From the IMG/VR virus record IMGVR_UViG_2671181094_000003: a stretch of DNA of 17,049 bases, one strand, 5' to 3'. The stretch comes from a virus (Duplodnaviria > Heunggongvirae > Uroviricota > Caudoviricetes). The notes beneath the pieces were generated by a model. It did no database searches, was not told where the DNA came from, and saw only the letters and a list, made by a program, of their open reading frames with translations. Shown here one piece after another: positions 12,348 to 17,049 of this stretch. The translations under genes and the position numbers were made by a program. The first letter of the stretch is position 1. Each line of letters starts with the position of its first letter.

Positions 12348-13658
12348 TTAAATCCGAAGTGATGTGCCTCTTCCGGTCGGTTTGACAATAGGGAATTGCT
12401 TAACGATGAAATAACCTCCGGCATCATTCGGGTGATCATTGCCAGATTTTTTATCAGGCTCCCCCTTCTCATCCCAGACCTGTTGCTCCAGAGATTCGGC
12501 ATATAACGGGCAACGCTTCACATTAACTTTATAGCGACGCTCACCATTGGCATTGCAGAACATTGCATTCATTGAGTTAACGCGATCTTTTACTGGCGGG
12601 TTCGAGCTGTTCACCACAACGTTAAAACCAGCCTGCTTAAGCTGGGCTATATCCGTCGTACTTGCGTTACTTGATTTTCTGGAATCCCCGGAAGCATCTG
12701 GATAAATATAAATTTCCCTCACTTTCCGGTAATCATTCCCATCATACAGCCAGAAGCGTTCTTTAATGATGCGGATCATATCCGGCGTATCGTAGGCATT
12801 GATGATTTCAGTTACCGCACATGGAAGCCCCAAACGCAGCACATGGACGATTCCCGCCATCTTTCCAACGTTAAAATCCATCCCAATATAAATCGGCTCC
12901 CCTGGCTGCTCCACTTCTTCGCAATTATTCAGTTTCCGGTCAAACTGATGGTAAACAGTACCACTTGTCAGGTTAGTAAACTGTCCTCGAAGATAGGCTT
13001 TAATCAGCTCTGGAGGGTATGATTCAAGAAGCGAAGGAATGTAATCTGCTGGCAGGTTCTTTTCATTATCGAAAGTAGATGCCTGCACCAGACCATACAG
13101 TGAGGCCAGCTCTGTTTTTTCACGCACGGCTTTAACAAACTGCTCGTAGACAAATTTGAATCCTTCCGGCGTGGTTGTAACGTCAATACCGTTGCGAAGT
13201 CCATCAATCTTATAACGCATACGTGCAATTATCTTGCGCCACGCCGTTCTGGCTTTTTCCTTCGGCAAAATGTCCAGTTCATCCACCAACGCATTACCAA
13301 TTTTGAAACCGACGATCGTTTGTGGCTTCTCCATCGATCTGCAGATAGTGGTTCCCCGATACTGGCGTCCGTAATAAAAGTGAACCTCTTTATTTCCCTC
13401 ATTAATTTTTACGTTCAATCCCCAGTCAGCAGCAACTTCTTCCACTGTAGGGTAAAAAATATCGCGAATTTGGGGATACGTTGGCGCAAAATATCCCTGA
13501 TTTATACCTGGATGCTCCCAAATCCCCTTGCATATGCCGCCACACCCAACCCATGTTTTGCCCGAGCCAAAACCAGCAATATAGGCTTTAAATTTATGGG
13601 GCATTGAAAGAAATCGCGCCTGAGGCACATTAAGCGTCGGAGAGATCATCTTCATCAC
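12348..13658 (-). CDS. Terminase large subunit, about 435 aa
   Basis: Walker A-like GFGSGKTW near the N-terminus. Position between the small terminase and portal. Start is one of three clustered ATGs (13658/13655/13649) just after an AAGGAG SD, overlapping the small-terminase 3' end. Confidence 0.9.
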   Translation of the reverse strand: MMKMISPTLNVPQARFLSMPHKFKAYIAGFGSGKTWVGCGGICKGIWEHPGINQGYFAPTYPQIRDIFYPTVEEVAADWGLNVKINEGNKEVHFYYGRQYRGTTICRSMEKPQTIVGFKIGNALVDELDILPKEKARTAWRKIIARMRYKIDGLRNGIDVTTTPEGFKFVYEQFVKAVREKTELASLYGLVQASTFDNEKNLPADYIPSLLESYPPELIKAYLRGQFTNLTSGTVYHQFDRKLNNCEEVEQPGEPIYIGMDFNVGKMAGIVHVLRLGLPCAVTEIINAYDTPDMIRIIKERFWLYDGNDYRKVREIYIYPDASGDSRKSSNASTTDIAQLKQAGFNVVVNSSNPPVKDRVNSMNAMFCNANGERRYKVNVKRCPLYAESLEQQVWDEKGEPDKKSGNDHPNDAGGYFIVKQFPIVKPTGRGTSLRI

Positions 13659-14724
13659 TCCTTACTCTGGCATCAACCACATTAATTTTGATCGCCACAG
13701 GCTGGGGATGTTCATTATCTTCCACCGTTTCGATCTCTTTGCGCAGCTTCTGGTTTTCCATTCTGCGCCGTTCAATTTCCAGTTCCTGTAGCCGCTTATC
13801 TGCACATAAAGCCCCGCCAGCAGAAAGCAAACGCAACAATTCACGCCGGGCGGCAGCCTTATCCTCCAGCAGGATCTCAACGCCGAATTTTCCGAATTTT
13901 GCCCCTGCATATAATTGCCGCGCATCCCCATCAAGCAGAGTGGTATCAGCCATATAAAGCTGTCCCGTTCCCTCACCGCAGCACTTCGGGCAGTCCGGAT
14001 TGGGTATGGCGTTATCAACAAAGCCGAGGCCTCCATATTCCGGTTCGGGTTTGCCATCTCTGGAAGCCTGCGCCGCTGCCTTGTCGAATTCTGCTATATC
14101 GCGCCACTGGTAGAGATGATTCTCGCCCCAGCAATAACGGCAGTTAACACGGCGAAATTGTGCAAGCTGATTGGGGTCGGCCAGGACAATGGCCATCAAC
14201 TGACTCACTAGTAAATCCAGGTCTGCGGTATAGCGTTTCTGGTACTGATTGCGGAAGTAGCTGATAGCGCGAAAAACCCTGGCATTTCTAAGCATACGAC
14301 TGGCGTTGCTGTTAGCTGTCGCACCTTGCCCCTCATAACCGGCTAGTCGGTACGCCTCTGTCGGCTTTTTACCCTGAGCAACAAGCATCGCAAACTTAGC
14401 CTGCTGGTCAGAAATGCCGAATTCATCGGGACAGAACGAAAATTCCTCCGCGTCGCCCTCATTCAGGCCCGCATCGAATACTGGCTTTTTTTCCTGAGAT
14501 TTTTCGTTCCGCTTTTGTGCAGTCTGCGCAGATTTTTTCTGCGCACTTTTTTGCGCAGTTTTGCGCATTTCTGTCTGCGCATTTTTCGGAGTTTTTTTGA
14601 TGTAACGACGGGCTGTTGCGTAATTCAGTCCCCTTGCTTCACACCATGCCACCGGAGATATACCGGAGCGGGTGTATTCAGCAATATACTCCTGCTGCAA
14701 CGCCCCCCAGTCCGGTCTGCTCAT
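13630..14724 (-). CDS. Terminase small subunit, unusually long (364 aa): N-terminal HTH, Lys-rich linker, Terminase_2-like core, Cys4 cluster
   Basis: The segment ISDQQAKFAMLVAQGKKPTEAYRLAGYEGQGATANSNASRMLRNARVFRAI matches the recalled small-terminase signature (Q..F…TEAY..AGY…A…LL.N..V..AI). Position is directly upstream of the large terminase. Confidence 0.75.
   Translation of the reverse strand: MSRPDWGALQQEYIAEYTRSGISPVAWCEARGLNYATARRYIKKTPKNAQTEMRKTAQKSAQKKSAQTAQKRNEKSQEKKPVFDAGLNEGDAEEFSFCPDEFGISDQQAKFAMLVAQGKKPTEAYRLAGYEGQGATANSNASRMLRNARVFRAISYFRNQYQKRYTADLDLLVSQLMAIVLADPNQLAQFRRVNCRYCWGENHLYQWRDIAEFDKAAAQASRDGKPEPEYGGLGFVDNAIPNPDCPKCCGEGTGQLYMADTTLLDGDARQLYAGAKFGKFGVEILLEDKAAARRELLRLLSAGGALCADKRLQELEIERRRMENQKLRKEIETVEDNEHPQPVAIKINVVDARVRSDEDDLSDA
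14525..14581. repeat. Five copies of the palindromic hexamer TGCGCA interleaved with T-tracts, inside the small-terminase coding region
   Basis: TGCGCA at 14525, 14540, 14552, 14562 and 14576, with T-runs of 4-7 nt between them. Encodes the low-complexity AQK-rich linker (…KTAQKSAQKKSAQTAQK…). Confidence 0.5.
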
Positions 14725-14727
14725 CAG

Positions 14728-14937
14728 TTAGTCCTGATTTTTATCCACCCTGAGTAGTTCGCGCAGAGCAAAGGCATCCCCTTTTCTGGCAAGCTTAAAC
14801 AATGCCGCTCGTAACTCGGCTTCACCTTTCGCTCTGCCCTTACGGATGGCCGCATAAAAATCTGTCATTGCTTCCCGATTTTCTTTCAGTCGGTTCAGAT
14901 CAACATCCAGAACGTCAGCGATTTGTTGTGCAGTCAT
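14728..14937 (-). CDS. Small hypothetical protein with a predicted helix-turn-helix, 69 aa from the ATG at 14937
   Basis: ORF MTAQQIADVLDVDLNRLKENREAMTDFYAAIRKGRAKGEAELRAALFKLARKGDAFALRELLRVDKNQD. Overlaps the 3' end of the upstream gene. The ORF-track start at 14979 would overlap by 65 nt. Confidence 0.45.
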   Translation of the reverse strand: MTAQQIADVLDVDLNRLKENREAMTDFYAAIRKGRAKGEAELRAALFKLARKGDAFALRELLRVDKNQD

Positions 14938-15847
14938 CCGGCACGCTGCCAGAGACTCGACTTTCGAATACGGAATCATTTGTCACCCCCATTGATATGC
15001 AGGGTGTCTTCTTCCTGTATTTTTCGTGAAGGATTTTTACTGCAGCGTTGTTCCAGGTGACCTGATGGTGAATGCGTTTATGGCTGGCACCCATCAGTGA
15101 AATTTTTACGCACGACGGCGCATACATGACGGAGTAAAAACTTTTAACGTAGGTTCCGGAATCCAGATACAGCTCGGTCATTCCGCCGCTGTTTTTCTGC
15201 GTCTGTTTCTGCCCTAACTGGACAGCACCGATCGTCATAAACAATTCACCACAGCGACCGAGATTCGTGTACGTATTCACATCCTCGTTAATGCGCCCCA
15301 TGAATGAGAACGGTCGATCAACCGAACAGATAAAGCTGTTCATTGCCTTGCGTTTCACCCACGAAGCATGGCCGCCATTGTCACCAAGAAAATCCCCGCC
15401 CTGCGACATAGCGATGGAAAGAGCAGGTATTGATTCGTAGTACGCCAGCATTTCAGAAAGGATCGCATCCAGTTTCCTTATCGGAAAATAGGCCTGGTCA
15501 TAGTTGCGATCCACCCGAAACTGGAACTCGTGATAATCATCATCGAGCTGAATGAAGTATTTACACCCGACCAGTTTTGCCAGGTCAAAACAGGCATTAC
15601 GGGCGTAAAAAATTGAGCGGCGGTCACAGAAATTATCGGCTTCGTCAAAACGACTGGCGATATCGGCTTTGGAAAACACCAGCACCTGTTCACCAAATTC
15701 AGCCATGTACTGATGCCGTGTCTTATCTTCATCATCAACAACGATAAAAATTTTCCCGGTATAGCCAGCACGACGCAACGTCCGGTAAGTCAGAACTTTG
15801 TCTGGTCGCCCGTGAGTCAGAATAAAGGCGCAAAAATCATCACGCAT
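14915..15847 (-). CDS. Hypothetical protein, ~310 aa, with GT-A glycosyltransferase-like motifs; substrate unknown
   Basis: ATG at 15847 has an AGGAGG SD and overlaps the ParB-like stop in ATGCGTGA. Motifs FILTHGR…IFIVVDDEDKT and YFIQLDDDYHE resemble the GT2 signatures (…PTYNR…VVDDGS.D, DxD). No obvious transmembrane segment. Assignment from motifs only. Confidence 0.5.
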   Translation of the reverse strand: MRDDFCAFILTHGRPDKVLTYRTLRRAGYTGKIFIVVDDEDKTRHQYMAEFGEQVLVFSKADIASRFDEADNFCDRRSIFYARNACFDLAKLVGCKYFIQLDDDYHEFQFRVDRNYDQAYFPIRKLDAILSEMLAYYESIPALSIAMSQGGDFLGDNGGHASWVKRKAMNSFICSVDRPFSFMGRINEDVNTYTNLGRCGELFMTIGAVQLGQKQTQKNSGGMTELYLDSGTYVKSFYSVMYAPSCVKISLMGASHKRIHHQVTWNNAAVKILHEKYRKKTPCISMGVTNDSVFESRVSGSVPDDCTTNR

Positions 15848-16631
15848 ATTCCTCCTCCTCACCACCATGCATGATCTCCACCATGCGCTGCGTCATCCGG
15901 ACAAATCCATTTTCAATAGCCTGCTGATAATCAATGATCACCAGCGCCGACTCCTCGAAAAAACACTGAATTTCAGCGGGGGCGTGAGCGTAATAGTCCG
16001 CAATTCTGCTGAAATTAAACACCGTGTGACGTTCTGCCGCACACAGGAGGAATTTCTCAATATCAGGCTCAAGGGACGCCGAACGTATCCGGCTGATCAG
16101 CTCCTGAGTTTTCGTATCGTCGTACAGTTCACTGATATCCGGTTTACCGCCCGACGGCTCATAAACAGGCGTATCAATTTTCGTCGTATACGGCTCCTCC
16201 TCATTTCCTGTACCGGGCACAACATCCGTCAACAGTTCATCAATTTCTGTCGGGATGAAGCCTGTCAGGGAGACATCAAAATCAGCATTGATTAGGTCCG
16301 ACAGCTCCATCCGCAACAGATCTTCATCCCAGCCAGCATTCATCGGCAGGCGATTATCTGCCAGGCGGTACGCCTTTTTCTGCTCATCCGTCAAGCCAGA
16401 CAGAACAATGACCGGAACAGAATCCATTTTGAGCATTTCAGCCGCCATAACACGACCGTGACCCGCAATAATTTCGCCCTTTTCGTCAATCAGCACCGGA
16501 TTAGTCCAGCCGAATTGCTTAATACTTTCTACCAGTTGTGCCACCTGCTCAGGGCTGTGCGTCCTGGCGTTGTGCGCATACGGTGACAATTCTTGTAATG
16601 GGCGATAGACTATCTTTAATTTCTCGCTCAT
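15840..16631 (-). CDS. ParB-like N-terminal-domain (ParB/Srx fold) protein, 263 aa
   Basis: N-terminal region …YRPLQELSPYAHNARTHSPEQVAQLVESIKQFGWTNPVLIDEKGEIIAGHGRVMAA… has the ParB-N pattern with a G-H-G-R motif. AAGG SD 6 nt before the ATG. Confidence 0.8.
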   Translation of the reverse strand: MSEKLKIVYRPLQELSPYAHNARTHSPEQVAQLVESIKQFGWTNPVLIDEKGEIIAGHGRVMAAEMLKMDSVPVIVLSGLTDEQKKAYRLADNRLPMNAGWDEDLLRMELSDLINADFDVSLTGFIPTEIDELLTDVVPGTGNEEEPYTTKIDTPVYEPSGGKPDISELYDDTKTQELISRIRSASLEPDIEKFLLCAAERHTVFNFSRIADYYAHAPAEIQCFFEESALVIIDYQQAIENGFVRMTQRMVEIMHGGEEEEYA

Positions 16632-16752: not shown

Positions 16753-17049
16753 GGTGATGCTGCCAACTTACTGATTTAGTGTATGATGGTGTTTTTGAGG
16801 TGCTCCAGTGGCTTCTGTTTCTATCAGCTGTCCCTCCTGTTCAGCTACTGACGGGGTGGTGCGTAACGGCAAAAGCACCGCCGGACATCAGCGCTATCTC
16901 TGCTCTCACTGCCGTAAAACATGGCAACTGCAGTTCACTTACACCGCTTCTCAACCCGGTACGCACCAGAAAATCATTGATATGGCCATGAATGGCGTTG
17001 GATGCCGGGCAACTGCCCGCATTATGGGCGTTGGCCTCAACACGATTTT
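16753..17049 (+). mobile_element. IS1 insertion sequence, partial copy cut by the window end; inverted relative to the left copy
   Basis: IS1 terminal repeat GGTGATGCTGCCAACTTACTGAT at 16753-16775; the downstream sequence is the reverse complement of the left copy. Confidence 0.95.
16808..17049 (+). CDS. insA: IS1 InsA, partial (C-terminus beyond the window)
   Basis: GTG start at 16808; the DNA is the reverse complement of the left-copy insA region. Confidence 0.9.

Follow-up and report, generated by a model that had tools for sequence, protein, structure and literature searches.

A TGCGCA hexamer array within the small-terminase gene of a Rac-family prophage as a candidate pac recognition site

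No more than a few pac sites have been mapped, and the closest precedent for the locus described here is that of phage P1. In P1, pac spans 161 bp of pacA and contains seven TGATCA/G repeats (PMC10028697; see also PMC11260489), and synonymous recoding of these hexamers lowers P1 packaging about 9-fold (PMC10028697). In the annotated P1 genome four TGATCA hexamers are found at nt 194-233 of pacA and three more hexamers at nt 324-352; pac cleavage is annotated between the two clusters, at nt 278-284, next to an IHF site. In SPP1 and SF6 the pac region (pacL/pacC/pacR) overlaps the start of terS and includes direct repeats and bendable DNA rich in A-tracts (PMC4737164). P22 and Sf6 are temperate enterobacterial headful phages that carry pac inside terS (PMC9611059, PMC11260489). 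How TerS recognizes pac DNA has been described as unclear and controversial (PMC9611059).

We analyzed a stretch of 17,049 nt of phage DNA (hereafter the window; coordinates are given along its + strand) which matches Salmonella phage SPF_0923 with 100% identity. Alignment with ON032529 shows its right end (16769-17049, - strand) to be the 3' end of trkG, the potassium-uptake gene of the Rac prophage, and this identifies the element as a Rac-family E. coli prophage. The product of its terS gene (Table 1) scored above the gathering score of the Pfam family Terminase_2 (PF03592; E 1.3e-8, 36 bits versus a cut-off of 26.1, residues 122-321) and matched phrog_51 'terminase small subunit' with E 4e-76. 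An AlphaFold model of TerS, built on a shallow alignment with a mean pLDDT of 48.5 and useful only for the split into domain, linker and domain, placed a second helical domain after the linker, at the start of the Terminase_2 region. Within this region a CxxC…CxxCC motif (NCRYCWGE … NPDCPKCCGEG; C194, C197, C244, C247/C248) is invariant and suggests that a zinc ribbon has been inserted into the TerS core. Among PDB entries, sequence searches yielded none that was informative for TerL or TerS. The terL gene follows directly and overlaps the 3' end of terS; a portal gene and a Mu-F/SPP1-gp7-like gene lie downstream of it, with matches of TerL and the gp7-like protein to PBSX/SPP1 families below the curated cut-offs. 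Solely from this gene content we infer that the window phage packages by the headful mechanism.

Several further features surround terS. An 83-aa ORF (14728-14979, - strand) lies four bases upstream, matches the middle of phrog_309, another small-terminase family (positions 145-218, E 8e-23), and is fused in frame to terS in some public assemblies (P0003, P0004). It overlaps the end of a glycosyltransferase ORF. Directly upstream of terS, a TET-associated-glycosyltransferase-like protein (14915-15868, - strand; PF20691 with E 3.8e-35; phrog_842 'beta-glucosyl-HMC-alpha-glucosyltransferase') and a ParB_N-domain protein (15840-16631, - strand) are encoded, which may form a module for DNA modification or with nuclease activity. 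Among the window proteins scanned, neither a TET nor a methyltransferase was detected.

Table 1. Features of the terS region, with window coordinates and, where given, positions in the terS gene
Feature	Window position	Strand	Gene nt	Remarks
terS, 364 aa	13630..14724	-		N-terminal HTH, linker, Terminase_2 core
terS N-terminal three-helix domain, codons 1-44	14593..14724	-		ends GLNYATARRYIKK; pLDDT 75-84
terS linker, codons 45-93	14446..14592	-		basic, low-complexity; pLDDT <50
Whole array and flanking A-tracts (T-runs on + strand)	14486..14598	-		
TGCGCA hexamer 1	14576..14581		144-149	AAT-GCG-CAG = N-A-Q
TGCGCA hexamer 2	14562..14567		158-163	other frame, ATG-CGC-AAA = M-R-K
TGCGCA hexamer 3	14552..14557		168-173	ACT-GCG-CAA = T-A-Q
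TGCGCA hexamer 4	14540..14545		180-185	AGT-GCG-CAG = S-A-Q
TGCGCA hexamer 5	14525..14530		195-200	TCT-GCG-CAG = S-A-Q
Degenerate sixth copy	14516..14521		204-209	TGTGCA on + strand, TGCACA on coding strand
terL (Terminase_6N/6C)	12348..13658	-		presumed nuclease/motor

An earlier reading of the sequence alone had pointed to five TGCGCA hexamers in the terS linker, irregularly spaced at 10-15 bp and interleaved with T-runs. This array is real. The five exact copies on the + strand of the window are separated by start-to-start distances of 15, 12, 10 and 14 bp, and T4-T7 runs lie between and around them (14486, 14500, 14513, 14533, 14547, 14559, 14582 and 14592). When the window was simulated 400 times with a first-order Markov model, the largest TGCGCA cluster within 62 bp held one copy in 348 runs, two in 51 and three in a single run, and never five. 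The whole window contains 12 copies versus 7.6 expected; since the seven copies outside the array match chance, the excess is the array cluster. On the coding strand the hexamer has the extended consensus AAA-n-TGCGCA-R-A, and the array (gene nt 144-209) encodes NAQTEMRKTAQKSAQKKSAQTAQ. Hexamer 2 has been lost in some close relatives, which have TGTGCA (M-C) at this place, and many close relatives have an exact TGCGCA in place of the degenerate sixth copy. In gene orientation, the array is closely followed by a 12-nt inverted repeat (GAACGAAAATTC at 14434-14445 and GATTTTTCGTTC at 14498-14509, 92% complementary, 52 nt apart). We rejected it as a cut region: it is kept in close relatives and not conserved in distant homologues.

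The TGCGCA motif is selected at the DNA level, independently of the protein code, as judged by its use of reading frames, its excess over codon resampling, its conservation next to diverged codons and its turnover. In the window four hexamers read xxT-GCG-CAx (N/T/S-A-Q) and one, at nt 158, reads ATG-CGC-A (M-R). The 266 hexamers found in relatives are spread over the three frames as 213, 48 and 5, and Buttiauxella has an extra hexamer in the third frame (AAC-TGC-GCA). Resampling of synonymous codons in the window linker, using the phage's own codon usage, yielded a mean of 0.67 hexamers versus the five observed, with five being reached in 2/5000 resamplings. For ten further homologues 0.25-0.66 hexamers were expected and 3-7 were observed, a number almost never reached in 5000 resamplings each; in relatives down to about 50% identity, the hexamers are 6-14 times above the number that the protein sequence would give. 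The distant relatives were collected by scanning one genome per species. Among these, the terS genes of Serratia, Superficieibacter and Buttiauxella (TerS proteins 53-55% identical) carry four to five exact TGCGCA at gene nt 138-204 even though their linker proteins differ. In the HTH codons adjoining the array the same codon is used at only 39-62% of conserved residues (about 50% synonymous divergence), so the hexamers do not simply reflect recent shared ancestry. Among close relatives single hexamers are gained and lost, and yet their number remains 4-6; site turnover at a steady total is typical of binding-site arrays. Synonymous-site conservation, which the sequence-only reading had proposed as a check, thus speaks for a DNA-level element.

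What does this mean for the linker? TGCGCA can be read as A-Q, M/L/V-R or C-A, and A-tracts are read as Lys, so that the composition of the linker follows the site. The AQK-type sequence of the linker therefore results for the most part from the coding content of the DNA site. The earlier proposal that the repeat serves both as linker code and as DNA site fits these data, and the constraint on the DNA seems to dominate. Across the linker, stops are absent from each of the three sense frames (gene nt 87-259, 14465-14638). In many single-member public protein records (P0011, P0018, P0025, P0037 and others) the translation switches to the +1 or +2 frame in the linker and later comes back into frame, and one IMG/VR copy (L056) is truncated by an extra A in the linker; these shifts are either homopolymer sequencing errors or real A-run slippage that is tolerated. 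A linker dictated by the DNA site would explain the frame-shifted readings in public assemblies.

We also considered that the array might be a mere by-product of an AQK linker that arose by replication slippage, its DNA motif being functionless. The stretch is indeed tandem-repeat-like (TRF periods 10-15) and encodes a basic linker predicted with low confidence, copy number differs among close relatives, and public assemblies frequently show A-run indels. However, a by-product of the protein would not be expected in three frames or so far above the protein-based number, nor would it stay exact across differing linkers and next to synonymous sites diverged by about 50%, and slippage alone would allow the repeat unit to drift between lineages. 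We regard this explanation as already largely refuted and its probability as very small.

Selection on the DNA raises the matter of what reads it, and the proposed reader of the hexamers is the N-terminal three-helix domain of TerS. We compared HTH helix and motif in 63 distinct genes drawn from the species-scan relatives, 80 IMG/VR loci and several GenBank phages, which are phylogenetically non-independent loci. All 52 genes with the HTH helix A-[RH]-R carry 3-8 TGCGCA and 0-1 TGCGAA at gene nt 127-270. All ten genes with the helix A-K-R (Klebsiella RothC, Yersinia vB_YenM_21.09 and others) carry 5-7 TGCGAA/TTCGCA and 0-1 TGCGCA; these arrays consist mostly of direct TGCGAAT repeats, with 4-5 sense versus 1-2 antisense copies. 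The single gene with the helix A-R-T-R, that of 933W as one representative of the Stx-phage type, has four CGATCATGAAAT repeats. TGCGCA with the ARR helix occurs on three terS body classes and TGCGAA with the AKR helix on two. Mutual BLAST similarity of the three classes was undetectable in a pairwise matrix of representatives (parts after residue 110), which we used in place of a single-linkage BLAST clustering that merged all terS bodies. Thus, the motif always lies directly after the HTH, switches with the HTH helix and is unchanged when the TerS body is swapped. The R-to-K change that is paired with CGCA-to-CGAA may represent one or two evolutionary events only, and HTH and array are physically adjacent and hence co-inherited regardless of function. 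The relation of helix to motif is also no simple code, as P1 PacA has a 'TARRY' helix and yet TGATCA hexamers.

Arrays of their own were seen after unrelated N-terminal HTH types as well. One such type (L184-L197, L009, L010) has GGGGCA(A)n three to four times followed by inverted TGCCCC two to three times, in the linker DNA at about gene nt 130-215 and conserved down to 45% identity. Another, that of pPE4 (L003/L104), has GTTTCCAC twice and then GTGGAAA twice, again in linker DNA. Among the 120 IMG/VR matches listed for triple-TGCGCA stretches, 77 have the window-type HTH directly upstream and 2 more are truncated copies of HTH and array, giving at least 79/120; several of the others listed follow different terS-like HTHs.

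The array might instead be a recombination joint that promotes the exchange of terS modules among mosaic phages. The window ceases to resemble Rac-SA53 and pPE4 at the array or close to it (query 211-943), the deletion fusion of Rac-SA53 ends inside it, and HTH plus array are found as a cassette on three unrelated terS bodies. A joint would not account for a motif that changes together with the HTH helix, for the upkeep of several spaced copies or for unrelated HTH types having arrays of their own. Moreover, if the cassette is the functional unit, module junctions fall after the array anyway. We consider a recombination joint highly improbable. The Rac-SA53 locus itself (L002, KU052037, 3150-3240; annotated 'gpO-terS fusion by deletion') no longer encodes the N-terminal HTH and retains part of the array, with two exact TGCGCA, one AGCGCA and one TGCGAA.

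P1 and the window phage share several palindromic TGnnCA-type hexamers in the 5' part of the small-terminase gene, and in both the array starts shortly after an N-terminal HTH and also encodes protein. In position and architecture the window array is the counterpart of the left-hand hexamer cluster of P1. The N-termini of the two small terminases show a weak match too: the P1 PacA N-terminus (…NLNPNTARRYLRAF) and that of the window TerS (…GLNYATARRYIKK) are 34% identical over 35 aa (BLASTP, pairwise E 0.002), with …NTARRYL… of PacA facing …ATARRYI… of TerS. The match of the TerS N-terminus to D6 PacA is likewise weak (tblastn E 0.4). TerS residues 6-79 matched phrog_1711 'terminase' with E 3.8e-5, and the domain matches terS genes of several PHROG families. 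P1 and the window phage also differ. The window hexamer is TGCGCA rather than TGATCA/G and provides no Dam GATC sites and no methylation switch; no GATC occurs within 14486-14598. Unlike the P1 arrangement of HEX4 and HEX3 around the mapped cut, the window gene has a single cluster, although some relatives have a second one (L018, L082, L093, L099, L102). No IHF consensus was found near the array, the five WATCARNNNNTTR matches in the window all lying elsewhere. Unlike PacA, the remainder of the window TerS is a Terminase_2/Zn-ribbon body unrelated to PacA. The array would therefore work like P1 pac/PacA but lack two features that define the P1 system, the GATC/Dam sites and the bipartite HEX4/HEX3-IHF layout.

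The TGCGCA array is probably the recognition part of a pac site that is read by the N-terminal HTH of TerS. The sequence-only reading had named the array as a candidate pac site; that the motif follows the HTH variant of TerS rather than the terS body fits recognition by TerS, and for the initiation of packaging we infer a role from the analogy to P1 PacA/pac and a weak homology to PacA. Hexamer spacing has a median of 12 bp and 86% of distances fall within 7-16 bp, and the array would thus offer five to six binding sites in a row, each roughly a helical turn from the next. Neighbouring hexamers may be bound cooperatively by several HTH domains from a single TerS ring, which flexible basic linkers would tether. 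TerS would be encoded by the very stretch of DNA that its HTH domains bind. Once bound at the hexamers, it would mark phage DNA (concatemers) and position or recruit TerL for a first cut nearby, from which headful packaging might proceed in the direction of lower window coordinates, where terL and the portal gene lie. The literature searched contained no mapped termini, footprints or transduction data for the window phage or for TGCGCA-type relatives. We looked to the ends of the deposited records of vB_EcoS-xxx and SPF_0923 for a hint of pac and dismissed them, as they appear to be artefacts of assembly or convention.

Binding by TerS could also serve another purpose. The array may be a site at which the TerS HTH or another protein regulates genes (terS autoregulation, late operon), or its UGCGCA copies may pair into RNA hairpins, with no part in packaging initiation. 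HTH domains often autoregulate, which counts for this idea, and the minus-strand RNA of 14470-14610 folds better than shuffled sequences (z = -3.5). In SPP1, promoters of terS overlap with pac, for which a link to gene regulation has been made (PMC4737164). A good fold is, however, trivially expected from palindromic hexamers, and stems cannot explain the TGCGAAT arrays with their predominantly direct repeats. The site is located 140-200 nt inside the ORF, away from a promoter or ribosome-binding site, and P1, the sole experimentally characterized relative, uses such hexamers for pac cleavage. Overall we consider an exclusively regulatory or RNA-based function unlikely; autoregulation by the HTH is possible, be it alongside packaging or in its place.

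SPP1 and P22 had been cited in the sequence-only reading as precedents; there too pac lies within terS or overlaps its start, but P1 is the closer precedent. The G1P proteins of SPP1 and SF6 are the founding Terminase_2 small terminases, and the core of the window TerS belongs to the same Pfam family (PF03592). Like the window array, the SPP1/SF6 pac region sits at the terS start and combines direct repeats with A-tracts. The SPP1 repeats (boxes A-C) are longer and moderately conserved, and they are not bound specifically by the DNA-binding domain, whereas the window array is built of a short, exact and strictly conserved hexamer and is accompanied by an extra N-terminal HTH that SPP1 G1P lacks. 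With P22 the window phage shares a location of the site inside terS. P22 pac is, unlike the window array, one asymmetric stretch of 22 bp located midway through gene 3, and P22 TerS is unrelated to that of the window; Pfam and PHROG profiles gave no P22 gp3 family match for the window TerS.

The comparison with SPP1/SF6 raises a further alternative, namely that TerS selects intrinsic T/A-tract curvature, as proposed for these phages, and that the hexamers are incidental. The SF6 model favours shape over sequence (PMC4737164), and A-tracts stand beside nearly every window hexamer. We predicted curvature with our own implementation of the Bolshoy-Trifonov wedge model, which we do not use as support. 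The strongest local bend predicted anywhere in the window, 39 degrees over 41 bp, fell at 14594. Over 130 bp, by contrast, the end-to-end ratio was ordinary, with 19% of window fragments being more bent, and the T-runs are unphased, with spacings of 14, 13, 20, 14, 12, 23 and 10. The bent DNA suspected from the sequence is thus not clearly supported. A-tracts are also produced by Lys codons, and shape alone leaves unexplained why the hexamer is so exactly conserved and why it switches to TGCGAA or GATCA. Selection for curvature is an improbable explanation of the array.

The N-terminal HTH module of the window TerS, with an array at the same position, is also present in 933W and Stx phages, 5 LV-2017, RothC, vB_YenM_21.09 and phiARM81mr, the terS bodies of which differ. 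Klebsiella phage 5 LV-2017 and Aeromonas phage phiARM81mr have TGCGCA, Klebsiella phage RothC and Yersinia phage vB_YenM_21.09 have TGCGAAT, and 933W has CGATCATGAAAT. In the 933W terS (L017, NC_000924) the four 12-bp CGATCATGAAAT repeats, at gene nt 141-265, encode IDHEIDHKTDHEIDHD; they come directly after the HTH shared with the window terS and are followed by one TGTGCA and one TGCGCA. These GATCA repeats look intermediate between the window and P1 arrays and represent a P1-like GATC array in Stx phages, a description of which was not found in the literature searched. The same holds for the arrays of the other four phages and for TGCGCA/TGCGAAT arrays in terS in general, the search having covered mostly literature outside subscription journals, where an earlier description is possible. 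Papers on Stx/933W pac, Rac-SA53, vB_YenM_21.09 termini and PhageTerm analysis of Stx phages reported neither the array nor mapped ends.

We tentatively propose a wider reading, which we hold to be possible though somewhat short of probable: that an N-terminal HTH and an array of its own motif in the next 60-100 bp form a portable specificity cassette which moves between unrelated TerS bodies in many enterobacterial and other phages. The motif types of this cassette would be TGCGCA, TGCGAAT, GATCA, GGGGCA and GTTTCCAC, and the linker amino acids would be a by-product of the DNA site. If so, the R/K helix variants would provide a readable recognition rule for the TerS-pac interaction. An exact motif that co-varies with an identifiable HTH helix on interchangeable terS bodies makes for a directly testable model of TerS-pac recognition, and if the pac model is true, Rac-SA53 should be defective or altered in pac recognition. 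At the level of coding, the candidate site is a case of overlapping codes in which an array of DNA-binding sites dictates the sequence of a protein linker. A known pac site would also permit the engineering of packaging specificity, as is already done with P1 phagemids, and would predict where lateral transduction starts in strains that carry the terS 5' region. The 5' 330 nt of terS are present in 891/5426 complete E. coli genomes, and the cassette, if it exists as proposed, would set the specificity of packaging and of lateral and generalized transduction in about 16% of complete E. coli genomes.
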